The position numbers and the translations under genes are program-made. The notes beneath the pieces were generated by a model that had not been told where the DNA came from, did no database searches, and saw only the letters and a list, made by a program, of their open reading frames with translations. DNA of 64,000 bases. Origin: Vallitaleaceae bacterium (GTDB lineage Bacteria; Bacillota; Clostridia; Lachnospirales; Vallitaleaceae). The stretch lies in assembly GCA_963677885.1 (NCBI GenBank), contig OY782500.1, positions 5,098,136 through 5,162,135 of the forward strand, given 5' to 3'. Shown here one piece after another: positions 4,176 through 51,769 of the stretch; the first letter of the stretch is position 1, and every line of letters starts with the position of its first letter.

Positions 4176-4231
4176 GAACAGCTCCTTTGAGCATAAGAAT
4201 ATATAAGATAAAATGATGAAAGAGGTACAGT

Positions 4232-8717: not shown

Positions 8718-8723
8718 TGTATT

Positions 8724-8750
8724 GCAGCCTTCGGGCTGCTTTTCTTTTTG
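8724..8750 (+). terminator. intrinsic terminator after ilvB
   Basis: GCAGCCTTCGGGCTGC hairpin followed by TTTTCTTTTT. Confidence 0.6.
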
Positions 8751-8763
8751 GGTTTTTTGGGTT

Positions 8764-8912
8764 GGGGGTCCTGGCTTGCCCGGGTCCAGGGCACTTGGCA
8801 CCCGGTCGGTGATTCCCAAATTTGGACATATCCCCATTATGGAGATATGACCATACCAAATTCGTGAGTCAAGGCCCAGATGCCAAGACCCAGGACCCAG
8901 ACAAGCCAGTCG
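8764..8912 (-). repeat. GC-rich hairpin repeat element, copy 5 (minus orientation)
   Basis: The minus strand reads GGCCTTGACTCACGAATTTGG ... CCAAATTTGGGAATCACCGACCGGGTGCC, matching the core of the other copies. Terminal arms GTCCTGGCTTGCCCGGGTCC... and ...GGACCCAGACAAGCCAGTC are mutually complementary. Local GC is far above the flanking sequence. Confidence 0.5.
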
Positions 8913-9130
8913 CAACCAGAAACTCTAAAAGAATAGAGTGAAAAGACTGCGATCCGAGACGCTAGGCTCTTCGAGCCGGCGCGACGACCCTCGTTGAGGG
9001 GAGATACGGTTATGATCTTCAAGTTGATATAAGAACTTCTGATTTATCTAATTTCCGTCGGAAGTTCCCAGCTGGCCGGTTCGGAACGAACCCACAGCGT
9101 CAACAACATATTCCATTCCTGTCTTATGGC

Positions 9131-9275
9131 GACAGGGGGCTGGTCCTTAGGACCTGGTGGTTGGGCTTTGATTCACGAATGTGGTTAGTAGACTTCCCAA
9201 TTAAACAATCTCTCAGCCACATTTGGGTATCACTCGCCCGACCAATAGGTGCCTAAGGACCGGCTCCCGTCCCTC
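9131..9275 (+). repeat. GC-rich hairpin repeat element, copy 1
   Basis: Core GGGCTTTGATTCACGAATGTGG ... CCACATTTGGGTATCACTCGCCCG. Terminal stem GGGGGCTGGTCCTTAGGACC pairs with GGTGCCTAAGGACCGGCTCCCGTCCC. Confidence 0.6.
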
Positions 9276-9379
9276 ATATCACAAGAACGGAAAAAGTTAT
9301 TGACAATGATTCTTCATTAGAATATAATTAGGTTAAGCCTAACTAATTAATTTAAGTTAGAAAAAGTAACAGGCAGGAA

Positions 9380-9832
9380 ATGTCCACAATTTTGGAGGCA
9401 AGGATGAAGGATACTGAACTTCGATTAATGGAAGCATATAAGAATTTATACAAATTGAAGTGTAATAGTGCTGACAAGTTCGATCATCAATGTGAGCTTA
9501 GTGACCTTACTTTGACTCAAATTGAATATCTGAAGATCATTGACAAACATGAATACATAACCCTTAGCGGATTAGCTGAAGCGGTTCATAATTCAAAACC
9601 TACAGTTACAGAAATGGTGAAGAAATTTACTTCTCTGGACTGTGTCTATAAAGTTAGATGTCATCAAGATGGACGTAAGTCCTATCTCAAATTAACAGAC
9701 CGAGGTTTAAAGGTTGCAAGAATGGAAGAGAATGTTTTGAAAGATTTAGTGCAAAAGATCATGACAAGACTGACAGAAGAGGAAGTAAATACCCTTATTG
9801 ACCTTTTCGAAAAACTTGGACGTGAGGAATAA
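9380..9832 (+). CDS. MarR-family transcriptional regulator
   Basis: 150 aa with a winged-HTH MarR pattern (LTLTQIEYLKIIDKHEYITLSGLAEAVHNSKPTVTEMVKKF). Confidence 0.8.
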   Translation: MSTILEARMKDTELRLMEAYKNLYKLKCNSADKFDHQCELSDLTLTQIEYLKIIDKHEYITLSGLAEAVHNSKPTVTEMVKKFTSLDCVYKVRCHQDGRKSYLKLTDRGLKVARMEENVLKDLVQKIMTRLTEEEVNTLIDLFEKLGREE

Positions 9833-9988
9833 TATATTCAAACTTCCAGCGACATAACCTCAGTTGCCAACATGGGACTTGATGCTGTGTCGCCTTTATT
9901 ATACCTAAATTGCCAAAAAGTTTTACTGGCAACATTAGGAAGATATCAGCTGCGAGGACATCCATAAGAGCCTGAAAGGAGAAATACT

Positions 9989-12358
9989 ATGAAAGATCAA
10001 GCATTACATGTTATACCGATTATAGATACCATTATTTTACCATCAACAGATACAAAGCTGTCTGTTGATGAACAGCTGGGACATGAGCTGAAAAACCAAA
10101 TAGATAATGCATCCGGATATGCCTTGGCATTTACCCTTAAAGAAGGAGTAGATAAAAAGCATGTAACAGAGGATAGTTTTTATAAAATTGGCACCTTGGT
10201 TAAACTCAACCGAATTGAACCATCCTCAAACGGATATTTAGTCTATGCCAGAGGTTATGAGCGGGTTGAGGCAGAAGATATCATTATCGCCGATACCAAT
10301 ACCTATGCTACCTATCATGGAGCGCCTGAAGTCGATGACCTTCATGAAGACGGTCGGGCCCAAATGATAGCCTACATCAAAGAAATCATACATGAGATTG
10401 GTGATCACTTTAAGGGAAATGAAGACTATATGAAGCTTCTTGACAGGCAAAAAGAAATCAATAGCCTGATTGGTCATTTGCTTCCTTTCCTTCAGGCCAG
10501 TCTAGATCAAAAATACGAATTGATTCGACATGCGTCCATGAAACAAAGAGGCCTTCTTTTCATCGAGTATCTTGGTAAACAACAGGAGTCTATTGAGTTA
10601 CAGGTTGAAATGGCCAAAAAATATTCCAAGAAGAATAACCAGAACTATCGAGAAGCCATGCTTCGTGAGCAGCTGAAAGCTATCCAGCAGGAGCTAGGTC
10701 AAGATGAAGATGATCCTGGAAGTACAGAAGCCTATCGTAAACGGATTGATGAATCCTTTATGTCAGAGGAAGCAAGAAAGGCGGCAAACAGAGAGCTGAA
10801 AAAATTGGAAACTTCAGGCGGTAATAATTCTGAAGCCCATATTATTCGTAACTATTTAGATTTGATGCTGGACTTACCTTGGAGTTCAGAGATAAAGGAA
10901 GTGGATATTAATGAAGCTAAGAGAGTTCTTGATCGTCATCACTATGGTATGGATAAGGTTAAGGAAAGAATTATACAACATCTAGCCGTCATGAAAATGA
11001 AAAAGAACAAGCAGGGGTCTATCCTTCTTCTTGTTGGCCCTCCGGGAACAGGCAAAACATCCTTAGGGAAAAGTATTGCTGAAGCCCTGGGACGTGAATA
11101 TATCCGAGCCAGCCTTGGAGGTGTCCGTGATGAAGCTGAGATTAGGGGACACAGAAGAACCTATATTGGAGCCCTTCCTGGTAGGATTATTCAAGGCATG
11201 AAAAAAGCGGGAACCAACAACCCTGTTTTTGTCCTTGATGAGATAGATAAACTTTCTATGAGTCACAACGGAGATCCGGCAAGTGCCCTTCTTGAAGTCC
11301 TTGACCCGGAACAAAACAATACTTTTGCAGATCATTACCTGGAAGTTCCTTATGACTTATCGGATGTTTTGTTTGTGGCAACAGCCAACTCCATGAACTC
11401 CATTCCACAGCCCCTCCTTGACCGTTTGGAAGTTATTCAGATATCCTCTTATACAAATCTCGAGAAGCTCAATATTGCCAGGGAACACTTGGTGAAAAAT
11501 TCTATGAAAGACCACGGTCTTGAAGGAGATGAAATTGTATTTGAAGATGAGGCGATCTCTGGTATAATTGACAGATATACAAGAGAAGCCGGAGTCAGAG
11601 GCTTACGCAAACAAATCGATAAAGTGGTTCGGTCAGTCATTGAAAAGATTGTTACCGATGAGGTTAAAGGGCTTTTCACGGTGACTGATGACAACCTTCA
11701 TGATCTGCTTGGAAACAGAATGGCTAGACACAATGAAATCCGTGAATCAGCTTCTCCGGGAGTTGTTACAGGTCTTGCCTGGACACCGGTTGGTGGAGAT
11801 ATTCTTTTCATAGAAGGAACCTTTATGGCCGGATCCGGCAACATGATGTTGACTGGTCAGTTAGGGGATGTTATGAAGGAATCTGCAAGGATTTCCATGA
11901 GCTTGGTGAAATCCCGTCTGTCCGACCAATTGAAAGTTATCGATTTTGGTAAAAATGATATTCATATACATGTTCCTAGTGGAGCGACGCCAAAAGACGG
12001 TCCATCTGCAGGTATTACCATGCTAACCGCCATGGCCTCCCTGGCAACTGGTAAAAAGGTTAAAACTGACCTTGCTATGACTGGTGAAGTAACTCTCAGT
12101 GGTCACGTCTTACCGGTAGGTGGTATCAAGGAAAAAGTCTTGGCAGCCCACCGTGCAGGAATTAAAGAAATCATTATGCCAAAAGAGAATGAAAAAGACA
12201 TTCAGGATGTACCTGAAGATGCAAGGAATGCCATCAACTTCCATTTTGTAGAGCAGATTGAGGAGGTTTTGGAACTTGCCTTGGACATTCATATCAAGAC
12301 TCCGGAAGAACTCTTTATCATTTCAGGACCTGAAAAAAATATTGGCTTCAAGATGTAA
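9989..12358 (+). CDS. lon: ATP-dependent Lon protease (endopeptidase La)
   Basis: 789 aa with LON N-domain, AAA+ Walker A (GPPGTGKTS) and the S16 catalytic Ser motif (DGPSAGITM). Confidence 0.95.
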
Positions 12359-12370
12359 ATGGAGGACTTA

Positions 12371-13666
12371 ATGGATAAGATACATATTGGATTATTAGGA
12401 CTGGGAACAATTGGTTCCGGCGTTTATAGACTGCTTCTTGAGCATGAGGAAGAACTTGAGTTTCAATTGGGAAGTCAGATAGTTATAGAAAAAATTCTGG
12501 TTAGTGATATCAAGAAAAAGAGACAGGTGGATGGTCATGACATACCCCAAAGTCTTTTGACCAGTGACCCGGAAGAAATTTTCTCGGATCCTAAGATTCA
12601 AATTGTTATCGAAGTCATTGGTGGTGAAAACTATGCTACTGAACTGATGACCAAAGCTTTAGAGTCAGGGAAAAGTGTTGTAACAGCCAATAAGGACGTG
12701 ATTGCCACCCAAGGAGTATTTCTCAGTGAGCTGGCAGCCAAAAATCACTGCGATATATATTATGAGGCCAGTGTAGGCGGTGGGATTCCCATTATTCGCG
12801 GTCTGACCGAAGGCCTTGCCTCAGATAAGATTACCCGGATCATGGGTATCGTTAATGGAACCACCAACTATATACTGACTAAGATGTCCAAAGAGAAAAT
12901 GTCCTATGAGGATGCCTTGGCCAAAGCTCAGGCTCTTGGTTTCGCTGAACCGGACCCGACCTCTGATGTGGAGGGCTTGGATGCCGCCAGGAAAATGGTT
13001 ATACTGTCCTCACTAGGATTTTCCATGCCAACAACCTTGGCAGATGTATATACTAGAGGTATATCTAAAATTGACCAAAGTGACATCGAATTTGCAGGTG
13101 ACCTTGGATTTGCCATGAAACTTATTGGATATGCTGATATTGAAGAGGGTCAAGTGGAAATCAGTGTCCAACCGACCTTGCTCCCTTACGAACACCCTCT
13201 GGCTTCTGTTCATAATGAAAACAATGCTGTTTATCTCTATGGAGCAGCAGTTGGAGAAACTATGTTCTATGGTCCTGGTGCAGGTGCTATGCCAACGGCT
13301 ACAGCTATAGTTTCTGACCTGATTACCGTAGTGAAGCGCCTAAAACTTGGAGTCTCAGGTAAGCATATGATCAATTTCAAGAATAAAAGAACAATTAAAG
13401 GCGATGATAAGATCAAGGCCAAATTCTACTTAAGACTTAATGTAAAAGACCAGGTTGGGGTCCTTAAAGATATTACAACTGTCTTTGCTGAAGAGTCCTT
13501 AAGCTTTGAATCGGTCTTACAGAAACCGGCCAAAGATCCGGGAGATGCACGTCTTGTCATTATTACCCATAAGGTTGTTTTAGGGTCCTATGTTAAGGCC
13601 TTGAGGCGATTGAAAGAGCTTGATACGGTTAATGGAATTGAGTCTTCTTTTAGAGTTGTTGGGTGA
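12371..13666 (+). CDS. hom: homoserine dehydrogenase (C-terminal ACT domain)
   Basis: IGLLGLGTIGSGV NAD-binding N-terminus, homoserine dehydrogenase catalytic domain and C-terminal ACT. Start set at ATG 12371 (RBS GGAGG 5 nt upstream) rather than 12359. Confidence 0.9.
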   Translation: MDKIHIGLLGLGTIGSGVYRLLLEHEEELEFQLGSQIVIEKILVSDIKKKRQVDGHDIPQSLLTSDPEEIFSDPKIQIVIEVIGGENYATELMTKALESGKSVVTANKDVIATQGVFLSELAAKNHCDIYYEASVGGGIPIIRGLTEGLASDKITRIMGIVNGTTNYILTKMSKEKMSYEDALAKAQALGFAEPDPTSDVEGLDAARKMVILSSLGFSMPTTLADVYTRGISKIDQSDIEFAGDLGFAMKLIGYADIEEGQVEISVQPTLLPYEHPLASVHNENNAVYLYGAAVGETMFYGPGAGAMPTATAIVSDLITVVKRLKLGVSGKHMINFKNKRTIKGDDKIKAKFYLRLNVKDQVGVLKDITTVFAEESLSFESVLQKPAKDPGDARLVIITHKVVLGSYVKALRRLKELDTVNGIESSFRVVG

Positions 13667-13719
13667 TGGTGTTTGGAGAGTTATGTAGTATGAATTAAGA
13701 AGGAATATGTTTATATAGG

Positions 13720-13866
13720 GACGGCAGGCAGGCTGCATATCCTATCTCGCGGGCAGGTGCCCCACGAATGCGATGAGATCATCTCTAAAGAGATGATGTT
13801 TGACGCATTCGTGACTCAAAAGCCCACGAGACAGGACAAGCAACCCACCTGCCTGTTGTTATATAA
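13720..13866 (-). repeat. GC-rich hairpin repeat element, copy 4 (minus orientation, diverged)
   Basis: The minus strand reads GGGCTTTTGAGTCACGAATGCG ... CATTCGTGGGGCACCTGCCCG, matching the family core. It holds an internal palindrome, CACGAATGCG...CGCATTCGTG. It lies about 50 nt after the hom stop. Confidence 0.5.
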
Positions 13867-14021
13867 AGATATATTTATTAAAAGCATAAGTCATAAAAGA
13901 TAAATACCACCAACCCGAGCTGTGGCTTTGTTGGGCGGGGAGGGTATTGGTTTGATGTTGGTTGAATCGCTGGGTAATATTTAGAAGTATGATTTGTAGG
14001 TAAATATCTGAATAACAAAAA

Positions 14022-14052
14022 AAGCCTCCAGAGCGAGGAGGCTTCAAGACAT
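14022..14052 (-). terminator. intrinsic terminator (mainly for the minus-strand EAL-HDOD transcript; A-run on the other side makes it possibly bidirectional)
   Basis: GCCTCCAGAGCGAGGAGGC hairpin with a T-run on the minus strand and an A-run on the plus strand. Confidence 0.6.
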
Positions 14053-14085
14053 ACTTATTGAATTTTATCTGAGAAACCGGGCGTA

Positions 14086-14257
14086 GACTCCGATTTGTAA
14101 TACACAAGGTGTGGGCTTAGGGTCTTGCTGGCTGGGCTTTGATGCACGAATGTGTTAAGGTTTATCTCATTTGAGTAAACATGAGTCACATTTGGGCATC
14201 ACTCGCCCTGCCAGTAAGAGCCCTAGGCCCGCACCTGTCCCCATTACAAATCGGAAT
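14086..14257 (+). repeat. GC-rich hairpin repeat element, copy 2; its 3' arm overlaps the stop codon of the EAL-HDOD gene
   Basis: Core GGGCTTTGATGCACGAATGTG ... CATTTGGGCATCACTCGCCCTG. Stem GGTGTGGGCTTAGGGTCTTGCTGG pairs with CCAGTAAGAGCCCTAGGCCCGCACC. An outer perfect 11-bp inverted repeat, CGATTTGTAAT/ATTACAAATCG, contains the TAA (revcomp TTA at 14244-14246) of the convergent gene. Confidence 0.6.
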
Positions 14258-15470
14258 TCAAAAATTCATAGAGCTGATTAGCCCAATCCACAGCACCAAT
14301 ATATAGATCAGGAAAAAAAGCAAAGTCCAGGTTAATAGATTTGGCGTATTTTTCGGCTTGATCAAAGTCGCCTTGCTCATAGGCCAAGGCAAGACGAAAG
14401 ACGTTGCTGTAGATGGTTTCTCTGAGTAGGAGTGTATCTTTTATATGTTTGGTAACCGGCAGTTCTGCCAGTGCATCTTCCATTGAGACTTCAAGAAGGG
14501 CATCTATAACCGATAGTAGACCTGTAAGTCTGAGTTCATGTATATGTTGGGAGAAGGCGCTTTTCATAGCGATATTTTCCAGAAATTTCATTCGTTGCAT
14601 AGCAAGGCGCAGTATTTCACTGGGCTTGTCATTGGTCAGTTGATGGATAGTGGCCAGGGTGAACCACTGACTGAAGGCCTCAATACCTAGGATAGAAAGA
14701 CAGTGCTTGATGGAGCTGACATTGTCCACCAGGGAAAATGAGGAATTGACCAGTTTCAGGAGTTTATAGGTTAAGGAAACTTCTGATTCGATGATTTCTG
14801 TTATTTTTTTGTATTTTGGTTCCGGTTCATCCAGTTCTTTCATGATTTCCACATAGTGATAGGCGGCGCCTGATAGACGTTTCTTTTTAACGATCGTTGG
14901 TTTGGCGAAGAAGTAGCCTTGGAAAAATTCAAAGCCGATTCGTTTGGCCCATTCGAATTCTTCTTTTGTTTCGACCTTTTCGGCCAGGAGAATTTTATTC
15001 ATGTCTTTAAGTTCAACACAGATCCGTCGTATATCCATATCAGTATTGGCTCTGAAATCAACTTTGACGATATCAGCCAATTCTAGGATTTCCTTATGGG
15101 GATAGCCGGAGATATAGTCATCTAAGGCAATAATATAGCCGTCTCGTTTGTATTCTTTAATTTTGGTAAGAAGTTCTTTCGTAGGAACGACTGATTCCAG
15201 AAGCTCGATGACCACCTTGTCCTTATTAAGAAGCCTTGGAACATCATCTAAAATCAGCAAAGGGCCGAAGTTAACAAAGGCCTTCTTCTCCTGGGTCAGG
15301 TGATTAAGACCGAATGATAGGTATGAGTTTAACAAAAGTATGGATGTTGCTACAGAATCCCGAAGACTGGCATCATAGAAATTCTTTTCGTTGCTTCGGT
15401 AAAGTAGCTCATATGCGATAACTTCATGAGTACTATCGAAAATTGGCTGTCTGGCGACGTAAACGTTCAT
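14244..15470 (-). CDS. EAL domain (c-di-GMP phosphodiesterase-like) plus HDOD domain protein
   Basis: N-terminal EAL-type fold (QPIFDSTHEVIAYELLYR) and C-terminal HDOD-like region, 408 aa. The last three codons and the stop lie inside repeat copy 2. Confidence 0.75.
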   Translation of the reverse strand: MNVYVARQPIFDSTHEVIAYELLYRSNEKNFYDASLRDSVATSILLLNSYLSFGLNHLTQEKKAFVNFGPLLILDDVPRLLNKDKVVIELLESVVPTKELLTKIKEYKRDGYIIALDDYISGYPHKEILELADIVKVDFRANTDMDIRRICVELKDMNKILLAEKVETKEEFEWAKRIGFEFFQGYFFAKPTIVKKKRLSGAAYHYVEIMKELDEPEPKYKKITEIIESEVSLTYKLLKLVNSSFSLVDNVSSIKHCLSILGIEAFSQWFTLATIHQLTNDKPSEILRLAMQRMKFLENIAMKSAFSQHIHELRLTGLLSVIDALLEVSMEDALAELPVTKHIKDTLLLRETIYSNVFRLALAYEQGDFDQAEKYAKSINLDFAFFPDLYIGAVDWANQLYEFLNSDL

Positions 15471-15583
15471 ATTAAAACCTCCTATACCTTATTATACATG
15501 GCATAGAAGGTTTATTCAACGAAAATGATTATTAACTGGAATAGAAAATAGGACCTAAGACCTATAAAAATTTGTGCATCATG

Positions 15584-16015
15584 CTAGTGGCCTGTCTTCA
15601 AATTTTTAACTAGAATCAGGAAGGTGTAGACACTTAACATGGCCAAAGCAATAGCGCCTGCAATAAAAAGTGTTTCTGATAAATAGGTGGAAAACATGTC
15701 CATGTCATCTTCAATAAAGTAAAAAGCTGTTCTATACATCCCTGCGCCAGGTACTAAGGGGATGATACCTGAAATTTGATAGGTAGTCACCGGATTCTTT
15801 CTGTAAATAGCCAGTAGGTTGGAAAGTATACTAACCACAAGGGCTGCCAGTAAGCTGGCTGCAATTTTTGAATCAATAGCACTTTGACTGATCAGGAACA
15901 TGGCCCAGCCACCGGCGCCAACGATACCGCAGTATATTAATTCCTTTTTGTTGACTTGGAACAATATGGAAAAAAACAAGGTAGCAAAAAATGCTGATCC
16001 GATTTGTATAAACAT
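15584..16015 (-). CDS. threonine/serine exporter family protein, small subunit (ThrE C-terminal-half homolog)
   Basis: 143-aa polytopic membrane protein immediately downstream of, and co-oriented with, the larger ThrE-family gene. Confidence 0.65.
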   Translation of the reverse strand: MFIQIGSAFFATLFFSILFQVNKKELIYCGIVGAGGWAMFLISQSAIDSKIAASLLAALVVSILSNLLAIYRKNPVTTYQISGIIPLVPGAGMYRTAFYFIEDDMDMFSTYLSETLFIAGAIALAMLSVYTFLILVKNLKTGH

Positions 16016-16073
16016 ATATATAGCAGGAAAAACCTGTCCTCCTTCAATTATTTTCTCTAGTATCCTGTAAGTA

Positions 16074-16826
16074 TTAACCTAATATCAACAAGGCAAAACC
16101 AACACCAACAGCGATTGAAATGGCGATGATAAAAGCATCTGCAATACGGGCCACACCTGATATAAGTTCACCGTGGAGAATATCTCTAATCCCGTTGGTA
16201 ATAGCAACTCCGGGTACCATAGGCATGATGGAGGATATGACAACCAAGTCGTAATTACAGGGATAACCGACAACGTTGATAAGAAAGAAGGGTATCACAC
16301 CTGCCAGGAAACCACCCGTTAGGTCAATGAAGAATTTGGATGTTCCTGTATAAAGCAGGAATATTTCCAAAAGGGCAAAAATAACACCTGCCATAAGGGC
16401 TGCGAAAAAGTCAATGGAGTTACCACCAAACACCAGGGCAAAAAAAGCTGAAGATAAACCGGTTGCCACAATCCTCATATAGGATTGGTAGTCAGGTTGA
16501 GCTTTTTCCTGCTCTATGGCATACATAGCTGCTTCCAAGGACATGTCTCCATTGCAGAAGCTTCGTGAGATATGATTGGCACCGGCTATTTTACTTAGGT
16601 TGATGGTTCGGCCCTTGATTCGCCGGACATATGTCAGACAATCAATATCAATATGATCTAAAGTGGCAAAAATGCCAGTAGGAGTTACGAAAGCTTCAGC
16701 TGTTTGACAATTACTGGTGTTAAGTATTCGGCTGATTGTGTCTTCCACCCTAAAAGTTTCGGCGCCGTTCTCCAACATGATTTCGCCGGTTTCCAACGCA
16801 AAATTCATTAATAACTTGTAATTCAT
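16074..16826 (-). CDS. threonine/serine exporter family protein (ThrE N-terminal-half homolog)
   Basis: 250 aa with a soluble N-domain followed by 5 TM helices, the typical two-gene ThrE arrangement. Confidence 0.7.
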   Translation of the reverse strand: MNYKLLMNFALETGEIMLENGAETFRVEDTISRILNTSNCQTAEAFVTPTGIFATLDHIDIDCLTYVRRIKGRTINLSKIAGANHISRSFCNGDMSLEAAMYAIEQEKAQPDYQSYMRIVATGLSSAFFALVFGGNSIDFFAALMAGVIFALLEIFLLYTGTSKFFIDLTGGFLAGVIPFFLINVVGYPCNYDLVVISSIMPMVPGVAITNGIRDILHGELISGVARIADAFIIAISIAVGVGFALLILG

Positions 16827-17053
16827 AATGTCTCCTTTTATCTATGTCTATTGTATAACAGAGGAGAAAAAAGTCAACTATGGAATCTGCCTAAAAATAG
16901 ATAAGCTGAGCTTATGTTCCTTATGCCTTATAGTTATAACTACATAGGGTATGCATGTTTCTTTTTTTGCAAGTCTATGCTATAATACTTTCAGCAATGT
17001 GAATTGTAAATTAAATGTAGCATTTGTTAATCTTGCTATAACGGAGGTAGAAA

Positions 17054-18289
17054 ATGTATTCTTTTGACGAAGTCAAGCAATTTGATCCAGAATTGGCGGT
17101 TGCTATTGACTCTGAAATCAATCGTCAGCGAACTAATATTGAGCTGATTGCATCAGAAAACTTTGTATCTAAAGCAGTCATGGCTGCTATGGGAAGTCCT
17201 TTAACCAATAAATATGCAGAAGGCTATCCAGGGAGAAGATATTATGGCGGTTGTGAAAAAGTAGATATCGCCGAAGATTTGGCCAGAGACAGAGCGAAAG
17301 AAATTTTTGGTGCTGATCACGCAAATGTACAACCACACTCAGGTGCCCAGGCTAACATGGCTGTATGCCTTGCAGTCCTTAAACCTGGTGATAAAATAAT
17401 GGGAATGAACCTGTCCCATGGTGGTCACTTAACCCATGGTAGCCCAGTTAACTTTAGTGGTTTGACATATGAAATCGTTCCTTATGGCGTTAATAAAGAA
17501 GGGTACATTGATTACGAAGAGTTAATGACTATTGCACTTGAAGAAAAGCCAAAGCTGATTATTGCTGGTGCAAGTGCTTATGCCCGTACAATAGATTTTG
17601 CAAAATTCAGAGAAGTAGCCGATGCAGTGGGAGCTTACCTTATGGTGGATATGGCCCACATAGCCGGACTTATTGCAGCTGGTTTGCATCCAAACCCAGT
17701 TCCTTATTCTGATTTTGTAACAACTACTACTCACAAGACCCTTAGAGGCCCTCGTGGCGGTATGATTCTCTGTAAAGCAGAACATGCCAAAAAAATCGAC
17801 AAAGCGGTTTTCCCTGGAACTCAAGGTGGACCACTTATGCATATTATCGCAGCTAAGGCGGTTAATTTCAAAGAAGTGCTTAGTGATGAATTTAAAAGCT
17901 ACCAACAGCAAGTCATCAATAATGCACAAGCTTTGGCAGAAGCCCTTCAGAAACGTGGTATAGACATCGTATCCGGCGGTACTGACAACCACTTAATGCT
18001 TCTGGATCTTAGAAGCCTAAATCTTACCGGTAAAGTTGCAGAGAAACTTCTAGATGAGGTTCATGTAACCTGTAACAAGAATACCATTCCTTTTGACCCT
18101 GAAAGTCCTTTTGTAACAAGCGGTATCCGTTTAGGAACACCTGCTGTAACAACAAGAGGTATGGTCGAAGCAGACATGGATACAATCGCTGAGATTATTC
18201 ACCTGGCTTTAACTGACTTTGACAATAACAAAGAAAAAGCTATTGCCATGGTTGAGGAACTGGTTGCAAAATATCCTTTATACGCTTAA
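17054..18289 (+). CDS. glyA: serine hydroxymethyltransferase
   Basis: 411 aa with the SHMT PLP motif [14 protein letters not shown]. The upstream promoter has an extended -10, TGCTATAAT. Confidence 0.95.
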
Positions 18290-18294
18290 TACTT

Positions 18295-18325
18295 AAGTCT
18301 GTCAGTTTACTGGCAGACTTTTTCA
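18295..18325 (+). terminator. intrinsic terminator after glyA
   Basis: AAGTCTGTCAGTTTACTGGCAGACTT hairpin plus TTTTC. Confidence 0.6.
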
Positions 18326-18462
18326 TTATCAAACCTGTCACCTTTGTAGGTGACAAATTTCTTGAACAAATGATGCCTAGAGCCCTGCTTACCGGGACGG
18401 GAAAGACCAGGGTGTGATATAATACTCTTGACACGTCAATTGAATAACTATGGGGGTAGTTT

Positions 18463-20436
18463 ATGATTGAGAAAACTATATTAGATAATCTTAAGTATTT
18501 GGAACTCTTAAGCAAACAATTTCCAACTATTCACGAAGCTTCTACGGAAATCATTAACCTGGAGGCTATTCTTAACCTTCCAAAAGGTACCGAACATTTT
18601 CTGTCTGATGTTCATGGTGAAGATGAGGCTTTTCTGCACATTGTCAAAAGTGGATCCGGTATCGTTAGAAAGAAAATCGATGATGTCTTCGGAGCCACCA
18701 TTACCAATGCAGAAAAAAGAAAACTGGCAACCCTCATCTATTATCCCAAGGAAGTCCTTAACCGGGTAGGCAAAAAACTAAATGTAGATGAGGAAGAGGA
18801 GAAAGACTGGTATGAGGTGACTCTACACCGGCTTATACTTGTCCTCAGAGAAGTATCCTCCAAATATACCAGGTCCAAAGTTCGTAAGGCCTTGCCAGGA
18901 GAATTTGAATACATTATTGAAGAACTTCTCCATCAGAGAGATAAGGATCCTGATAAAGACCATTACTACAATCAGGTCATATCATCCATTATTGAGATTC
19001 GAAGAGCCAATCCTTTTATCATTGCCATTAGCGAGGTTATCCAGCAGCTGGCTGTTGACCATCTCCACTTGATTGGTGATATCTATGACAGAGGACCTAA
19101 TCCGGATAAAATCATGGACAAGTTAATGGATTACCATTCCCTGGATATTCAGTGGGGGAATCACGACGTGGTCTGGATGGGAGCGGCAGCAGGTTCTGAA
19201 ATCTGTATTTTGAATGTCATTCGAATCTGTGCCAGATATGGTCAGTTGGATATACTGGAAGAAAACTACGGTATTAATCTTTTGTCCATCGCAAGATTTG
19301 CGATGGATCATTATAAAAATATTGAGAAACAGTTTTATCCAAAAACCGATCATTTGATGAGTGATGAAAGCCTCTTGCATGCCCAGATAAACAAGGCCGT
19401 CTCTCTTATGCTCTTTAAAATGGAAGAGGTGGTTTCCGACCGTAATCCTATTTTTCATTTGTCCGATAGGAAGATGTTGTCAAAAGTGGATTTTGTTACT
19501 AACTCGGTTGAAATCAATGGGGTTCAACACCGCCTGATGATTAATGACTGGGGAACGGTCTTTAAGGAGAGGCCGACTCAATTGACTGATGAGGAAAATC
19601 AGGTGATTACCAAGCTTCAGTATTCCTTCCTCAACAATGTCAGACTCCAACAGCATGTTGCCTTTCTTTTTGAGAAGGGTAGTATATACAAGGCATATAA
19701 CGGAAACCTTTTATATCATGGGTGTATCCCCCTCAATGAAGATGGGTCCTACACGGAATTGCCATTTGAAGGTGAACTTTATTCCGGTAAAGCCTTATTG
19801 GATTATTATGAACAGCGTATCCGGCAGATTTACGCCAAGCGGGAATCCATTACAGAGGAAAAGGAAAGAGACTTCTTCTGGTTCCTATGGTCGGGTGCCA
19901 ATTCGTCCTTGTTTGGCAAGACGGCTATGAAAACCTTTGAAAGACTTTTAATCGGTGATAAGGATACCCATGTGGAAGGAAAGAATCCTTATTACAAGTA
20001 TATTTTACAGGAAGATGTCTGTAAGAAAATATTAAAGGACTTCAATCTTAACCCGGATCATGGCAGAATTATCAATGGACATGTACCGGTAAAGGTCAAA
20101 AAAGGCGAGAAACCCGTAAAGTCCGGAGGCCGTTTAATCGTCATTGATGGAGGCCTTTCAAAGGCTTACCAGGATGTGACCGGTATTGCAGGATATACCT
20201 TTATCTTTAATTCCCATGGTATGCTCCTTGCAGCCCATGAGCCCTTTACCTCTGCCGATGATGCCATCAGCAACAATGTGGATATGATTTCAGAACTGTC
20301 CATTGTTGAACATGCAAGCTCAAGAATTTTAGTCGGAGATACGGATATCGGTAGAAAGCTTGCAAGAGATATTGAAGACCTAAAACTCCTTGTAAGTGCC
20401 TACAGATTAGGATTTATTAAAACTTTATTATATTAG
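18463..20436 (+). CDS. fbp: fructose-1,6-bisphosphatase class 3
   Basis: 657 aa. The N-terminus MIEKTILDNLKYLELLSKQFP and the metallophosphatase core (GDIYDRGP, GNHD) are typical of Firmicutes class III FBPase. Confidence 0.9.
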   Translation: MIEKTILDNLKYLELLSKQFPTIHEASTEIINLEAILNLPKGTEHFLSDVHGEDEAFLHIVKSGSGIVRKKIDDVFGATITNAEKRKLATLIYYPKEVLNRVGKKLNVDEEEEKDWYEVTLHRLILVLREVSSKYTRSKVRKALPGEFEYIIEELLHQRDKDPDKDHYYNQVISSIIEIRRANPFIIAISEVIQQLAVDHLHLIGDIYDRGPNPDKIMDKLMDYHSLDIQWGNHDVVWMGAAAGSEICILNVIRICARYGQLDILEENYGINLLSIARFAMDHYKNIEKQFYPKTDHLMSDESLLHAQINKAVSLMLFKMEEVVSDRNPIFHLSDRKMLSKVDFVTNSVEINGVQHRLMINDWGTVFKERPTQLTDEENQVITKLQYSFLNNVRLQQHVAFLFEKGSIYKAYNGNLLYHGCIPLNEDGSYTELPFEGELYSGKALLDYYEQRIRQIYAKRESITEEKERDFFWFLWSGANSSLFGKTAMKTFERLLIGDKDTHVEGKNPYYKYILQEDVCKKILKDFNLNPDHGRIINGHVPVKVKKGEKPVKSGGRLIVIDGGLSKAYQDVTGIAGYTFIFNSHGMLLAAHEPFTSADDAISNNVDMISELSIVEHASSRILVGDTDIGRKLARDIEDLKLLVSAYRLGFIKTLLY

Positions 20437-20541
20437 GACCAAATAGTGGACAAGGACCCTCCTGTATGGTAATTTAGGTATACATTAAGGTTAAAATTTT
20501 ATTGCCAGAAATGGCTTGTATATAGGAAAGAGGTCGTTTTT

Positions 20542-22917
20542 ATGAAATGTTCGGTTTGCCACGAGAACACAGCTGTTGTTTTTGTGACTAAGATGGTTGA
20601 CAACAAGCCTGAGCGCATGGGACTATGTCTCCCGTGTGCCAGTAAACAGGGACTAAGCCCCTTGGATCAGATGATGCAGCAGAGCGGCATGAACCCTGGT
20701 GATTTTGAGAATATTAACAAGCAGATGATGGAGATGTTCGAAGATCCGTCTATTAGTGATTCTATTAATCAGTTTATGGAACAAATGTCAGGCGGAAGCC
20801 CGGTGTTTGGAGCCTTTGCAGGTCATGAACCTGAAGATGCCACCTTTGACCAAGAGGACGAAGACAGTGAAGAAATGTCTAAGATACCGGATGAAAAAAT
20901 TCCTGGTACAGAGGATGATGACAAGAAAATAGACAAGGAAAATCCTTTTAGTCAATTATTTGGCGGCAAACAGACTAAGGTTAAGCCAAAACCTTCCAAG
21001 AACAAGCGAAAGAACCTGGATACTTTTGGTATAAATCTTAGCGACAAAGCTAAAAACGGTGAAGTAGACAGGATTATTGGACGCCACAGAGAAATTGACA
21101 GGGTTATCCAAATCCTCAACCGCCGACAAAAAAACAATCCGGTTCTTATTGGTGAGCCTGGTGTTGGTAAAACGGCAATAGCCGAAGGTTTAGCTGTCAG
21201 AATTTATGAAGGTCAGGTTCCTGTCAAACTTCTGGATGCGGAAGTCTATCTTCTTGATTTGACAGCCCTTGTTGCCGGAACCCAGTTTAGGGGACAGTTT
21301 GAAGGACGGATGAAGGGCATTATCAATGAAGCCAAGTCCAGTGGTAATATTATACTGGTAATTGATGAAGTCCATAACATAGCCGGTGCCGGTGAAGCTG
21401 AAAGTGGGGCAATGAACGCAGCTAATATCTTAAAGCCTGCCCTTGCAAGAGGAGATGTTCAGATTATTGGTGCCACAACCCTGGATGAGTACCGTAAACA
21501 TATTGAGAAAGACTCGGCTCTGGAAAGACGCTTCCAACCGGTTCTTGTTGACGAGCCAAGTGTGGAGGAATCCATTGAAATCATCAAAGGCATCAAAGAC
21601 TACTATGAAGACTATCACAGGGTCATTATTTCTGATGATATCATTGCATTGGCTGTCAACATGAGTGAACGCTATATTCATGACCGTTTCCTGCCAGATA
21701 AGGCTATAGACGTTATTGATGAGGCCGGTTCAAGAGCCAATCTCAAAAATATGGGACTGGTTGAACTGGAAGCCCTTAGAAGTCAGTTGAGTAAAATCGT
21801 CGCTGAAAAAGAAGCAGCAGCAGCCATTGATGATTATGAAAAGGCGGCAGATTGCAGGGTTAGAGAGCTAAAGGTTACCGATAAGATCAAGAACCTGGAA
21901 ATTCAATGTGAAAATGTCCATATTAAGGAAGAAGACATTGCCTATGTCATCGAAGCCTGGACCAATATTCCGGTTCAATCCATTAAGGAAGATGAAAAAG
22001 AAAAACTGATCCAATTAGAAAGACGTCTGTCAAGACGGGTAAAAGGACAGGACCATGCTATTGAACTACTGGCCAAATCCATCCGTCGTAACCGGTCAGG
22101 ATTTAAGAAGAAGAATAAACCGTCATCCTTTATCTTCGTAGGACCTACTGGTGTAGGTAAGACCGAGCTCTCCAAAGCCTTAACTGAAATTCTCTTCGGT
22201 AACGAAGAAGCCATGATTCGTTTTGATATGAGTGAGTACATGGAAAAGCACACCGTATCCAAACTTATTGGAGCTCCTCCTGGATATGTGGGCTATGATC
22301 AGGCTGGACAGTTAACCGAACGGGTTCGAAGACGTCCCTATTCAGTAATCTTACTGGATGAAATCGAAAAAGCCCATCAAGACGTTTACAACCTTCTGCT
22401 TCAAATTCTGGAAGATGGAAGATTAACAGACAGTCAAGGCAGGGTAGTTAACTTTGAGAATACGGTGATCATTATGACTTCCAATGCTGGGACTACAACC
22501 AAGTCCAACAGCATCGGTTATAACAACGATACCAAAACAGCCGGCCAAAATCACGTCAAGGATGCCCTTAAACAATTCTTTAGACCGGAGTTCCTTAATC
22601 GGGTTGATGAAACTGTCATCTTTAACTCCTTAGACAGAGAAATTCTTCATGAGATCGTCGAAGTAATGCTTCGTGAAGTTATTCTTATGGGTAAGGAAAA
22701 GCACATGGATATTATGGTGGCGTCTGAAGTAAAGGACTACTTAGTCAATATAGGCTACGACGACAAATTCGGAGCCAGACCTCTTAGAAGGGCTATTGGA
22801 CGCTATATAGAAGATGAAATTGCTGAGCAGTATATTCATGGAACTATCCAGGACGGAGACAGGGTTGAGGTTTCTATGGATGGTGATAGGGTTTTTGTTT
22901 CTAAGATTGAGCAATAG
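20542..22917 (+). CDS. clpE: ATP-dependent Clp protease ATP-binding subunit, ClpE-like (N-terminal zinc ribbon, two AAA+ modules)
   Basis: N-terminal CxxC...CxxC zinc finger (MKCSVCHENTAVV...CLPCA). Two Walker A motifs (GEPGVGKTA, GPTGVGKTE) and a ClpB-D2-small C-terminus. Confidence 0.85.
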   Translation: MKCSVCHENTAVVFVTKMVDNKPERMGLCLPCASKQGLSPLDQMMQQSGMNPGDFENINKQMMEMFEDPSISDSINQFMEQMSGGSPVFGAFAGHEPEDATFDQEDEDSEEMSKIPDEKIPGTEDDDKKIDKENPFSQLFGGKQTKVKPKPSKNKRKNLDTFGINLSDKAKNGEVDRIIGRHREIDRVIQILNRRQKNNPVLIGEPGVGKTAIAEGLAVRIYEGQVPVKLLDAEVYLLDLTALVAGTQFRGQFEGRMKGIINEAKSSGNIILVIDEVHNIAGAGEAESGAMNAANILKPALARGDVQIIGATTLDEYRKHIEKDSALERRFQPVLVDEPSVEESIEIIKGIKDYYEDYHRVIISDDIIALAVNMSERYIHDRFLPDKAIDVIDEAGSRANLKNMGLVELEALRSQLSKIVAEKEAAAAIDDYEKAADCRVRELKVTDKIKNLEIQCENVHIKEEDIAYVIEAWTNIPVQSIKEDEKEKLIQLERRLSRRVKGQDHAIELLAKSIRRNRSGFKKKNKPSSFIFVGPTGVGKTELSKALTEILFGNEEAMIRFDMSEYMEKHTVSKLIGAPPGYVGYDQAGQLTERVRRRPYSVILLDEIEKAHQDVYNLLLQILEDGRLTDSQGRVVNFENTVIIMTSNAGTTTKSNSIGYNNDTKTAGQNHVKDALKQFFRPEFLNRVDETVIFNSLDREILHEIVEVMLREVILMGKEKHMDIMVASEVKDYLVNIGYDDKFGARPLRRAIGRYIEDEIAEQYIHGTIQDGDRVEVSMDGDRVFVSKIEQ

Positions 22918-22946
22918 ATTAGTAATTCAATACCATTTAATAAAAA

Positions 22947-22988
22947 TGCCTCTTGCACTAATTCTTTTTAGTGTAGGAGGCTTTTCAT
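22947..22988 (+). terminator. intrinsic terminator after clpE
   Basis: GCCTCTTGCACTA...TAGTGTAGGAGGC imperfect hairpin followed by TTTTCATT. Confidence 0.5.
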
Positions 22989-23029
22989 TATGTTTGGGTT
23001 ATTTATGGGAGTATCAAATTAGAGTTGAA

Positions 23030-23093
23030 ATATAGAGCTAGTCACTCCGCCCTTGCGCACTTCGTGAAGCCGGTCTGAGCAACTAGCTCTATA
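23030..23093. repeat. perfect 13-bp inverted repeat (ATATAGAGCTAGT / ACTAGCTCTATAT) flanking a 38-bp GC-rich spacer
   Basis: Read directly from the sequence. It sits at the boundary between clpE and the low-GC islet. Confidence 0.5.
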
Positions 23094-23407
23094 TTTCTGC
23101 TTAACTGGATATGCATAAAATTATAAATTATTGATAAGTTTACATATATAGAGTTAGAAGAAGTGATTTCTAGATATAGTATATAAGTTTTACAAACATA
23201 TACCTTACACAACCAAGAAGCTTAGCAAAAACCATAGAATAATCATAAACGCCTTAGAAATGCAAGATCCTTCAAGGTTCACAATTTTCTATAACTTCCT
23301 GACACTTCTCAGAACTCCATAGGTCTCTCCAGAAATCTTCAAAACGCTAAAATCTCCCACTTCCATTCATGACCCCCAACACAAACCACCCACTACATCA
23401 ATATATG

Positions 23408-23600
23408 ACACAAGGTGTAGGCCTAGGGTCTTGCTGGTTGGGCTTTGGCTCACGAATGCCTCTTGCATTGCTGTATCATTGTTCCTAACCCAGGCATTTG
23501 GGATCCACTCGCCCGACTAGTAAGAGCCCTAGGCCTTGCACCTGTCCGTTATACATTGAATGTCACCCTAGGCCTGCACCTGTCCGTTATAAATCGATTG
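23408..23600 (+). repeat. GC-rich hairpin repeat element, copy 3 (with a 26-bp internal direct duplication of its 3' arm)
   Basis: Core GGGCTTTGGCTCACGAATGCC ... CATTTGGGATCCACTCGCCCGACTAGTAAGAGCCCTAGGCC. The 5' arm ACACAAGGTGTAGGCCTAGGGTCTTGCTGG is nearly identical to copy 2. The 3' arm CTAGGCC(T)TGCACCTGTCCGTTATA occurs twice (23531-23556 and 23567-23592). It ends 8 nt before the stop of the convergent gene. Confidence 0.6.
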
Positions 23601-23602
23601 TA

Positions 23603-24424
23603 TTATTTGTTGTATATTCGAATTTGTTCGTCGAAGGAAACTAAGTTTATAAGATAGTCAGGTAGCTTTATAGAAGTGTAATAGTATTCAGCTTCCTCCT
23701 TACTAATAGCCTCAATATAATTTTTGGAATAATTCTTATCGGGACTTACATACCTTAGCATAAAGTCTACAGCCTTATTATAGGCTATAGCAGCTTTGTG
23801 GATGGATTTGTAGTGGCCGATGGTTACATAACCCTTAAGATGGATTTTGGCCTTGTAAACGAAGGATCCCTTGTGGACAACCTGTTCAACACCAAGGTAG
23901 GGGTTACGGATTTTAATGTTTTCATATCTGAAATTGTTTCGATTACCGTCAATAAAGAGATAATCTTTGCCATAGGAGGCGTAATTCCGGATACCGTAGC
24001 GGGACAGTATATTGGTTTGCATACCGTAGTCATTGACAAAAAGGTAGTTACCCTTGGCGAAAATCTTGTGGGAGGAGTAGAAGAATAGGTCATCAACATC
24101 AAAGATTAGGATCCTGTCCTGGTCCATATGATAGGTGAAATAGTTTTTGGACAGGTAAATAGGGGTCTTGAAATAAAGACCATTGTCCCGGAAGTTCATG
24201 ATGATCACCCATTTTTCATAGTCCATGGACTGGTCCGTATTCATATAGTCATCCAGTTTATAGAGTTTGCGGTCTAAGACCTTCTTAGCCAGTTTATAAC
24301 AGTTTTCTGCAATATTCCGGTCAGAGGATGAGCCTAGGCTGATATGACGGCCCTTATGTGTGATGGAAACCCTGTAGTAGACGTCTCCATTTTTTTTCTT
24401 TGTTTGATAGATACCTTTAGCCAT
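23603..24424 (-). CDS. AP2-domain / HNH_3-like putative homing-type endonuclease (AP2 - HNH-like - AP2 architecture)
   Basis: N-terminal GIYQTKKKNGDVYYRVSITHKGRHISLGSSSDRNIAENCYKLA fits the AP2/integrase-arm pattern (YRV...KGK.I.LG.F...E.A..AY). The central IDGNRNNFRYENIKIRN resembles the HNH_3 motif (HIDGN..NN...NL), but the usual His before IDGN is Phe. A second AP2-like segment is VYKAKIHLKGYVTIGHYKSIHKAAIAYNKAV. The locus has low GC. Confidence 0.55.
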   Translation of the reverse strand: MAKGIYQTKKKNGDVYYRVSITHKGRHISLGSSSDRNIAENCYKLAKKVLDRKLYKLDDYMNTDQSMDYEKWVIIMNFRDNGLYFKTPIYLSKNYFTYHMDQDRILIFDVDDLFFYSSHKIFAKGNYLFVNDYGMQTNILSRYGIRNYASYGKDYLFIDGNRNNFRYENIKIRNPYLGVEQVVHKGSFVYKAKIHLKGYVTIGHYKSIHKAAIAYNKAVDFMLRYVSPDKNYSKNYIEAISKEEAEYYYTSIKLPDYLINLVSFDEQIRIYNK

Positions 24425-24663
24425 TTAGAATCCAATCTCTTACAAATTATTTAATATTTTCTTCATTATACCATTTTCGTATAAAAAAAGGGAGACAAGA
24501 TCTTCCAAATTTCCTATTGGGCAAAATGAATAAAAAATTGCAGAGCCCAAAAAAATGCATAAAAAAACATCATAGGTGTGTTACTTGCTATTGTTTTTGC
24601 CTAAAAAATATGAATAAATAGTCTGAAAACTTTTTAAACTTAACAAAGAGCCGGCATTTCCAT

Positions 24664-47997: not shown

Positions 47998-48015
47998 GTC
48001 TGAAAATATTTTTTT

Positions 48016-48441: not shown

Positions 48442-48503
48442 TTCGGTTTCGCATTATGTCTTGACGGTTGGTCGTGTGTGTGGGAGTATCCGTATTAATT
48501 ATG

Positions 48504-48533: not shown

Positions 48534-48558
48534 TTTTTTGGGGAAGGAGCGAGATGTC

Positions 48559-49026: not shown

Positions 49027-49040
49027 AAATAATATAGTAG

Positions 49041-49338: not shown

Positions 49339-49379
49339 AACCACAAAATGACCAAAGACTAATGTAACCAGGAGAGAAA

Positions 49380-49892: not shown

Positions 49893-49987
49893 TATTAAAT
49901 ATAATCCAATAGGCTATAGTCTGTATCCAAAACAAAAAGCCAATAACTAAAAGCCAACAACGTAAGGAATTTCCCATAACGAAACCG

Positions 49988-50340: not shown

Positions 50341-50414
50341 ACCTCTCCTTTATTGTCAAACTCCTCCAATCTAGAGTATAATATAAGAGCTATAGAGAAG
50401 AACAGGAGGTAACC

Positions 50415-51672: not shown

Positions 51673-51769
51673 GCAGGGATGACTTTGCAAGTCAATATTG
51701 CAAAAAAGGACTAAATATGTTAGAATTGGCCTAATCGAAAAAGGCTAGGATAAGAACCAGTAAATACAT

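Follow-up and report, generated by a model that had tools for sequence, protein, structure and literature searches.

The closest described counterparts of the hairpins reported here are the REP, BIME and REPIN sequences, extragenic palindromes that mostly lie near gene ends, occur mainly as inverted doublets, contain no transposase, persist vertically over long times and are thought to matter through a hairpin in single-stranded form. BIMEs combine two REP subtypes in opposite orientation. In Proteobacteria, REP doublets form hairpins (Bertels & Rainey 2011, PMC3116915; PMC3337134). Here we describe five copies, named c1 to c5, of a palindromic intergenic repeat that resembles them in these respects, in a 64-kb stretch of the genome of a Vallitaleaceae bacterium (contig OY782500.1; hereafter the window). 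We give a probability of about 0.5 to the reading that they represent a lineage-restricted family of palindromic intergenic repeats that is mobile in origin and has been kept by the host as a strand-specific hairpin, probably of RNA.

A second group of described systems, including ERIC/YPAL, the Correia repeats of Neisseria, the pneumococcal BOX and RUP sequences and bcr1 of Bacillus cereus, comprises RNA-folding repeats that resemble MITEs (miniature transposable elements with inverted repeats). Repeats of this type are co-transcribed, their orientation relative to the transcript matters and some are substrates of RNase III or RNase E, while conserved terminal inverted repeats, usually a target duplication (TA and the like) and many near-identical copies are characteristic of them. 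The Vallitaleaceae hairpins resemble them as palindromic intergenic repeats in the range of 100-170 nt that fold as long RNA hairpins, but they show no duplication, are only 65-75% alike, are paired with a fixed polarity and have orthologs under strong purifying selection. They also differ from REP sequences (ca. 20-40 nt) in their larger units of ca. 145-230 nt, in having the inner core and not the ends as their most conserved part and in the distance of 218-318 nt between the members of a pair, each of which folds alone and not with its partner. In addition, they lack a GTAG-type 5' motif, reside in a host of the Clostridia and appear to have a low copy number, and no RAYT or Y1_Tnp match was found among the open reading frames (ORFs) of the 64-kb window.

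The core of the element, GGGCTTTGRNNCACGAATG with at most three mismatches, occurs at exactly five sites of the window, 8859-8877 (-), 9163-9181 (+), 13806-13824 (-), 14134-14152 (+) and 23440-23458 (+), where 0.25 would be expected by chance and none of 100 shuffles reached five. A covariance model (CM) built from the copies and run with filters off recovered these five at 105-147 bits and had no further match in the window. These are c1 at 8769-8907 (-; 109 bits, RNA fold of -90 kcal/mol, z -8.7), c2 at 9131-9275 (+; 124 bits, -82 kcal/mol, z -9.1), c3 at 13716-13858 (-; 105 bits, -92 kcal/mol, z -14.5), c4 at 14102-14243 (+; 147 bits, -85 kcal/mol, z -9.9) and c5 at 23408-23550 (+; 133 bits, -74 kcal/mol, z -7.7). 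Core pattern and CM thus bear out the places and strands that a preliminary description of this stretch, made from its letters alone, had given for five copies, and the CM search that it had proposed as a check, run here on the window, returned those copies only. Each of them is one long near-perfect hairpin of ca. 145 nt (units of 139-145 nt, or 170-230 nt including outer arms), and the predicted RNA free energies range from -74 to -92 kcal/mol with z scores of -7.7 to -14.5 against dinucleotide shuffles.

For the analysis of covariation we aligned seven copies, i.e., the five of the window and two from a pair on the comparison sequence L001, which belongs to a metagenome-assembled genome (MAG) of the Vallitaleaceae. 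Of the alignment cells, 93.8% are paired, compared to 75% with shuffled and 31-46% with slid partners, and two-sided changes are seen in 30 of 44 pairs; none of 500 shuffles matched these values on any measure. The co-varying stems with complementary arms reported previously are therefore real, and the view that they constitute a hairpin under selection and not random repeats is upheld by this covariation together with the orthologs of a sister strain (see below). Several details required correction. The quoted stem sequences exist, but had been assigned to the wrong copies: GGGGGCTGGTCC belongs to the copy at 9131, GGTGTGGGCTTAGGG to those at 14102 and 23408, and GTCCTGGCTTGCCCGGG to the one at 8764. 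The inner palindrome has CCACATTTG as its 3' half, pairing via G.U, and not CCACATTCG; the closing stem measures ca. 35-45 bp instead of 20-30 bp; and the GC content of the copies is 52-55%, not ca. 60%, in a window of ca. 40%. The fifth copy had been drawn out to 23600, but 23566-23602 (+) is a tandem duplicate of its 3' end that lies outside the hairpin and comprises the outer arm of c5 together with the final ca. 22 nt of its 3' arm (direct repeat D15). Finally, the copy at 13720 forms a distinct subtype with a 1-nt insertion in its core.

The hairpin is built in layers. At its base stands an AT-rich outer stem of ca. 12-45 bp, and next to it lies an asymmetric junction at which 5' A(C)A faces a C-rich 3' UCCC(C), with the 3' end reading ...CCYGTCCCC. 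The main stem of 35-45 bp has a G/T-rich 5' arm and a C/A-rich 3' arm and is composed of degenerate heptads. In every copy, GGGYYTN units recur along the 5' arm with a period of 7 nt (lag-7 autocorrelation z 3.4; window 14103-14143 is an example), and this periodicity suggests that the long stems may have grown by repetition of a short unit. Above the main stem follows the conserved core of ca. 45 nt, GGGC-UUU-GAUNC-A-CGAAUG / CAUUUG-G-GNAUC-ACUC-GCCC, in which the internal loop UU(U) / (A)CUC is closed by GGGC/GCCC. Beyond it lie, in this order, a short GAUNC/GNAUC helix, a mismatched A.G and a further helix, CGAAUG../..CAUUUG, whose G.U is fixed. The tip of 25-35 nt evolves freely. Two subtypes can be told apart, of which one is formed by c3 and the (-) copy of L001 with their common 3' arm ...GAGATAGGATAT...GCCTGCCGTCCC, and the other by c2, c4, c5 and the (+) copy of L001 with GGTGTGGG-type arms; c1 is closer to the latter. 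Beyond the core, the copies agree in their AT-rich outer arms and in brief terminal sequences, (A)ACAGG... / ...CCYGTCCCC. Most of the 35-45 bp stem varies, and a long terminal repeat conserved among copies in the manner of a MITE is not apparent. The shared core and stem subtypes mark the copies as a family of common descent.

The elements are set into housekeeping DNA of a Clostridia-type Firmicute, whose proteins in the window have their closest named relatives in the Vallitaleaceae. The genes of the window run in the order ilvD, ilvB, then c1 and c2, MarR, Lon, hom, then c3 and c4, EAL/HDOD (-), two ThrE genes (-), glyA, a class-3 FBPase gene, a ClpB-like gene, then a large palindrome and c5, and a gene of 273 aa (-). 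No ORF across the 64 kb matches a transposase or recombinase, in agreement with the preliminary description. That description had missed three traits of the family, namely its head-to-head pairs, their fixed polarity toward genes and a palindromy that runs into the flanks. The (-)(+) pairs c1/c2, c3/c4 and that of L001 are separated by spacers of 218, 219 and 318 nt, respectively, and their members are placed at the two edges of one intergenic region. In all three pairs the 5' ends point toward each other and the 3' end (CCYGTCCCC) toward the neighbouring gene, an orientation that would arise by chance with a probability of 1/64 by simple arithmetic. In detail, c2 lies upstream of the promoter of MarR-Lon-hom (TTGACA-17-TATAAT, 9300-9328), 27 nt from the -35 box, c3 lies 50 nt past the hom stop codon, the 3' end of c4 abuts the EAL/HDOD stop codon (14244-14246), and c5 is located downstream of the stop codon (23603-23605) of the minus-strand 273-aa gene. 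A partner of c5 is doubtful. The candidate, ca. 300 nt upstream at 23027-23097, is the centre hairpin of the 370-nt quasi-palindrome 22875-23245 and reaches a CM score of only 14 bits (E 0.37), so we did not accept it as a true member of the family.

What lies inside the pairs argues against a composite transposon whose interior is conserved. Among the four regions, the spacers show no sequence relation to each other (global-alignment z -0.4 to 2.3), and the c3/c4 spacer contains host sequence: it holds the EAL terminator together with 24 nt left from an unrelated repeat of 105 nt, both of which are found in the same place in the element-free relative L003. A pair is therefore better explained as two insertions at the edges of an intergenic region than as one mobile unit. 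In the c1/c2 spacer, a block of 52 nt (9047-9098) with the mini-palindromes TTCCGTCGGAA, CCAGCTGG and GGTTCGGAACGAACC shows one difference in 52 nt to a sister strain, while the adjoining spacer at 8954-9046 differs by 29%; this block might bind a protein or serve c2 as a promoter-like element.

How the copies evolve can be seen in this sister strain, for which Logan assemblies of the runs SRR22103804/5 provide three contigs: L013 spans ilvB-c1-spacer-c2-MarR-Lon, L012 covers the whole ClpB/273-aa region with c5, and L011 carries hom and ends inside c3. The comparison thus covers c1, c2, c5 and the visible half of c3, and the EAL fragment of the sister strain is its N-terminus only. All of these copies are present at the same sites as in the window (c1 at L013 662-800, c2 at L013 1021-1165 and c5 at L012 2104-2245). 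Main stems and cores differ at 11 of 381 positions (2.9%), compared to 26 of 85 (30.6%) in the apical loops and 535 of 2559 (20.9%) at third codon positions of six genes, whose first and second positions differ by 1.3%. The contrast between stems and third positions is highly significant even when stem differences are over-counted at 23 (Fisher p 5e-15), so that the rate of change in stems and core is ca. 7-fold below that of synonymous sites, whereas the tips are free to drift. The 3' arm of c3 is identical to L011 over 45 nt, and the stems of c5 are identical to those of L012 save for one G.U<->G:C change. Divergence is 29% in the centre of the c1/c2 spacer and 15% in the outer arms. At the c5 locus, 22918-23120 (terminator and palindrome centre) is 2.5% divergent and 23121-23215 is 37% divergent. 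Stems and core are under purifying selection and the host keeps the copies, which is not the behaviour of a dead MITE. The 3' end of c5 differs in one respect, since window 23527-23604 carries a 39-nt tandem duplication with copies differing at few bases that matches a 39-nt gap in the L012 alignment, and the single c5 end of the sister strain is hybrid-like between the two copies of the window.

Beyond this strain, the family is rare and patchy. An exact pattern scan of 185,579 GTDB species genomes found one true locus, the pair of L001, which lies in the rplL-rpoB spacer at 4189-4329 (-) and 4648-4788 (+) and whose (-) region (4183-4338) is 70% identical to c3; a second match in a Brevibacillus coding region was due to chance. 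Two chance matches from a JGI metagenome scan were both rejected by the CM, and neither three pattern scans of viral contigs nor a blastn search of c4 against plasmids and phages revealed any copy. The relative L003 is fully syntenic with the window (hom 89% identical), but its three intergenic regions measure 229, 190 and 143 bp compared to 663, 578 and 686 bp, and the CM found no match in it. At the first site, L003 (6840-6885) retains a 44-nt remnant, GTTGGGTGTCTTGGTTTGCGTGGGTCCAACCCGCGTCCCTCAAC, that equals the outer 29 nt of c1 plus the last 15 nt of c2. It was left by a deletion from one hairpin to the other and can itself still fold into a small one. No copy was found in L006-L008 (80% identity) or L004 (76%). 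At orthologous sites, the window and the sister strain thus possess the elements, L003 has none or a remnant, and L004 and L006-L008 have none. A family that is old enough to occupy different loci in two Vallitaleaceae lineages and yet is this patchy points to past mobility plus loss, probably in the manner of REP/BIME or MITE elements, because its copies have spread to unrelated places, i.e., rplL-rpoB in the MAG and the ilvB/MarR, hom/EAL and ClpB/273-aa borders in the window.

The relatives also vary in gene content at the hairpin-bearing borders (window 8700-17000): in L004, ilvB, hom and glyA follow each other directly without MarR-Lon and EAL/ThrE, and L006 has a gene of 723 aa in place of the EAL gene. 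In the sister strain, the short-read contig L011 breaks off midway through c3 (at the position of window 13760). Hairpins that break assemblies in this way would make it likely that the family is under-reported in public contigs.

Patchiness, absence from syntenic relatives and an unrelated occupied locus in another genome are also what a selfish non-autonomous transposon would leave behind, e.g., a MITE or the ends of a Tn3-like or other element that is served by a transposase elsewhere and has no host function. The conserved termini ACAGG.../...CCYGTCCCC and the GGGG...CCCC outer ends of the pairs would suit such an element, as would the position of c4, which abuts and may supply the last EAL codons, the duplicated end of c5 and the decayed remnant in L003. 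We nevertheless regard this explanation as unlikely. Its orthologs should decay, but divergence in the stems is 2.9%, compared to 21% at synonymous sites and 31% in the loops of these copies; the level of 65-75% identity among copies speaks against a recent burst; and 64 kb of sequence contain no transposase. No direct target-site duplication exists at single copies or pairs, where the flanks are inverted and not direct, and the c3/c4 pair encloses a host terminator and repeat remnant that are both present in the element-free L003. Of the earlier suggestion of a MITE-like element, the patchy distribution therefore fits, while the missing target duplication and autonomous partner and the lack of neutral decay among orthologs do not.

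A further property sets the two strands of the hairpin apart. Within the seven copies, transition-type arm mismatches on the modelled strand are G.U(T) in 40 cases and A.C in 7, a bias with z ~4.8 if the events were independent, which they are only in part. Four wobble pairs are kept in 5-6 of the 7 copies while neighbouring pairs covary, and the 11 stem changes between orthologs comprise five exchanges between G.U and Watson-Crick pairs, one of the A.C type and five transversions, one of which mends a G.A mismatch. The modelled strand folds better than its complement both as RNA (-90/-82 vs -69/-65 kcal/mol) and as DNA (-44/-44/-33 vs -34/-36/-27), and the bias is missing from two other giant palindromes of the window used as controls (G.T vs A.C 10 vs 12 and 10 vs 8). 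The simplest explanation is that selection acts on one folded strand, because a duplex or cruciform predicts no asymmetry and arm-to-arm copying would erase fixed wobbles. This favoured strand is antisense to the ilvB, hom, EAL, 273-aa and rplL mRNAs and sense for MarR and rpoB, and corresponds to the direction of transcription from the intergenic region into the neighbouring gene. The G-runs of the 5' arms confer G-quadruplex potential on it.

For a double-stranded DNA element, such as a cruciform or protein-bound palindrome (e.g., a BIME-like topological or gyrase site or a recombination site), one could invoke the long near-perfect palindromes at transcription-unit borders including convergent gene ends, the sequence conservation of both arms and a core that is readable as inverted half-sites GGGC NNN TGAT N C N C N AATG. 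These half-sites, however, are 30-40 bp apart across a variable tip, the polarity toward genes is fixed, and a strand-symmetric function predicts none of the G.T bias and fixed wobbles that distinguish the family (40 vs 7) from the control palindromes. We consider such an element very unlikely.

Of the two single-stranded alternatives, RNA is likelier than DNA, because the polarity follows genes and not replication and both orientations occur on one replichore. The GC skew is positive throughout the window, and a replication-strand cause of the G.T bias is rejected on the same grounds of mixed orientation, while transcription-coupled deamination would predict the opposite bias. The working form of the element is therefore, we infer, most likely an RNA of the favoured strand.

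This RNA would differ from the structured 3' untranslated region (3' UTR) element considered in the preliminary description, which put the hairpin on the wrong strand, since the favoured one is antisense to the ilvB, hom, EAL and 273-aa mRNAs. The idea of a cis-acting structured RNA in the mRNAs of flanking genes, serving as a 3'-UTR stabiliser, oversized terminator or processing site, draws on four of the five window copies starting 0-50 nt after a stop codon (ilvB, hom, EAL and the 273-aa gene), on the lack of another predicted terminator near hom and the 273-aa gene and on an antisense strand that still folds at ca. -65 to -69 kcal/mol. On the mRNA strand, however, the wobbles become A.C mismatches (40 A.C vs 7 G.U), and ortholog changes that are neutral on the other strand would open or close mismatches there. 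Furthermore, c2 and the (-) copy of L001 are upstream of genes and not in 3' UTRs, c1 and the palindrome at 23062 lie beyond canonical terminators, and the stems lack a following U-tract, which makes this reading improbable. An intrinsic terminator scan of the focal regions found only the canonical ones at 8724, 14045 (-) and 22948; the hairpins themselves do not qualify without a U-tract directly after the stem.

The palindromy of several copies extends beyond the part conserved in the family, with self-inverted alignments at 8721-8953 (c1), 9099-9304 (c2), 13681-13896 (c3), L001 4147-4375 and 22875-23245. Taken alone, the outer arms are significant for c1 (p ~0.008-0.03), c2 (0.012), the palindrome at 23062 (0.0005-0.003) and the (-) copy of L001 (0.02-0.03), and not for the remaining copies. 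These extensions mirror local sequence: that of c1 mirrors the ilvB terminator region, and the outer arm of c2, GTCAACAACTTT, matches an A-rich stretch just upstream of the MarR -35 box (12/12 in L013) that is present in L003 and recognisable in the element-free L006. Similarly, 22875-23245 mirrors the last codons of the ClpB-like gene, with arms in which 70% of 180 columns are complementary, the 3' coding end of the ClpB-like gene among them, and its right arm reads as a 70%-identical inverted copy of these codons plus the terminator. The 13-bp outer arms of c4 (14090-14102 / 14244-14256, TCCGATTTGTAAT/ATTACAAATCGGA) coincide with the last EAL codons and stop codon. EAL homologues end 1-9 residues past FL(N/S), and these last codons may be host sequence, while the resemblance of the outer arms of c5 and the (+) copy of L001 to those of c4 would suggest element sequence or a target preference. 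The EAL/HDOD protein ends in ...QLYEFLNSDL in the window and in ...QLFAFLDKIAEEQSLSISISEN in L003 (window 14244-14300 vs L003 11487-11560), with divergence from L003 starting exactly at the c4 outer arm. We infer that the mirroring is a by-product of hairpin-templated copying through fold-back or template switching.

Such copying errors might in principle have made the palindromes in place without any mobility of a family, given that the palindromy reaches locus-specific sequence (the ilvB terminator, the MarR promoter-upstream stretch and the ClpB 3' end at 22875-23245) and that the window contains another family of giant palindromes. Yet a core of ca. 45 nt and stem subtypes that are common to unrelated loci in two genomes need common descent, arm-to-arm copying would erase the fixed G.U pairs, and the paired double changes that it predicts are not seen in the main stems between the sister strains. 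This explanation, extremely unlikely overall, is thus largely refuted for the origin of the core and survives only for the outer arms. A related thought is a previously undescribed DNA mechanism in which a single-stranded hairpin joins DNA ends or gaps beside gene ends and primes fold-back synthesis, i.e., a hairpin-capping transposition or repair. It would jointly account for the outward polarity, two copies per region, the lack of target duplications and the inverted copies of host flanks (ilvB terminator, MarR promoter-upstream sequence, last EAL codons and ClpB 3' end); we know of no transposition or repair of this type in bacteria and think it quite improbable.

Comparison with other known families did not yield a name for the element. 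An Rfam scan of the whole window at gathering thresholds found only three T-boxes, all away from the copies, and a scan of 8500-14500 at E<=10 gave only chance matches of miRNA or snoRNA type well below threshold. ARAGORN reported 0 tRNA or tmRNA genes over 8000-24500, and no regular short-repeat array (CRISPR) was found, so that the initial exclusion of T-box, tRNA and CRISPR holds and the proposed Rfam check returns no family for the copies. Readings of the core as K-turn, C/D box, hammerhead or hairpin ribozyme did not fit by eye. With integron attC sites the family has in common that structure-conserved sites are used as one folded strand with fixed extrahelical features, but R''/R' boxes (RYYYAAC/GTTRRRY) at the base, an integrase and a cassette array around these copies are missing and the orientations are opposite. 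IS200/IS605 ends or PATE need subterminal hairpins on the same strand, while the favoured strands of pair members are opposite. Tn3-derived TIME elements have 38-bp GGGG... terminal repeats and a 5-bp target duplication. The outer ends of the pairs do read GGGGAC.../...GTCCCC, but their 5-bp flanks differ (ATATA/ATTAC, GGGTT/TCATA and TGTGT/ACCTA), and the c3/c4 spacer holds host sequence. The rplL-rpoB spacer occupied in the MAG is reportedly the site of an RNase III-processed hairpin in E. coli, attributed to Barry, Squires and Squires in 1980, and a long duplex there would be a natural site of processing or attenuation; the E. coli site has no sequence relation to the family and is a single locus, not dispersed. 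Since it lacks defining features of each of the families compared, we file the element as a palindromic intergenic repeat without named family. It is a previously undescribed and strongly constrained hairpin family with a paired, gene-facing layout.

What the host could gain from such hairpins we can only sketch. Transcription running from the intergenic region into a gene would make the favoured strand as an RNA hairpin, and this long duplex with its conserved internal loop would stop or process transcripts that enter the gene from outside. RNase III-type cleavage or a bound protein could be the means, insulating genes from read-in or antisense transcription. Processing or insulation of read-in transcripts is a tentative proposal that we think possible, if on the unlikely side. 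It would account for one inward-pointing copy at each gene edge, for sites next to both 5' and 3' gene ends, for the pair in rplL-rpoB of the MAG and for the protection of a single strand.

Several observations weigh against the view of a mobile repeat kept by its host as a strand-specific RNA hairpin. A promoter scan found none in any spacer that would serve the favoured strand, and CCCC and AT-mixed sequence come after the hairpins in place of a U-tract, so that transcription of this strand is an assumption. Divergent promoters in the spacers were likewise considered and rejected, with some 5' outer arms showing -10-like TATA boxes without a consistent -35. The G.T bias would also fit a single-stranded DNA form, and it comes from only eight copies in two lineages plus orthologs, with G.U counts that are partly inherited. 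Mobility is deduced from the distribution of copies, while the 64 kb show no target-site duplication, transposase or autonomous copy. A single mismatch costs little in a long stem, and the 7-fold reduction in rate therefore hints at sequence-specific recognition by a factor that the model does not name. The strong conservation in the sister strain sits oddly with full absence in the next relatives, and function alone does not explain the pairing of copies.

The window harbours further repeats and structured RNAs. A second, unrelated family of giant hairpins occupies 48010-48445, 49040-49340 and 49985-50345 (ca. 300-430 nt, RNA free energy -126 to -173 kcal/mol). Its three members share one orientation and enclose a pair of small GNAT acetyltransferase genes (48538-49026 and 49380-49892) in a cassette-like layout that is followed by TraX and another GNAT gene; their arms differ between copies yet remain complementary, without a G.T/A.C strand bias. 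A third dispersed repeat of ca. 105 nt (AGAACAAAGAGGCTYCGCCTYGTTCGC...GGAAAGTTTCCTTAACA...GATGTTTCTACTCATAAAATTCA) is common to three genomes, with copies at window 52059-52163 (-), L001 4868-4975 and L003 11373-11470 (-) and 15640-15740 (-). Its window copy lies between a T-box leader and proS, while the 24-nt remnant at 14054-14077 abuts c4, where L003 has the full repeat. The three T-box leaders (Rfam RF00230, 94-117 bits) at 533-755, 51738-51984 and 60796-60969 precede the ilv operon, proS and a further aminoacyl-tRNA synthetase gene, respectively.

If the favoured strand of the hairpins is transcribed, they would represent a novel type of RNA hairpin acting in cis, one that marks the borders of genes, perhaps shields them too, and was recruited from a mobile repeat in Clostridia, a group in which REP/BIME-like systems are, to our knowledge, essentially undescribed. 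The debate about REPINs would gain a clean case of a dispersed repeat that is maintained by its host at nearly the rate of non-synonymous sites. Beyond this, pairs of fixed polarity and palindromes that grow into their flanks bear on the question of how long hairpins originate and survive on the chromosomes of bacteria despite hairpin-cleaving nucleases.

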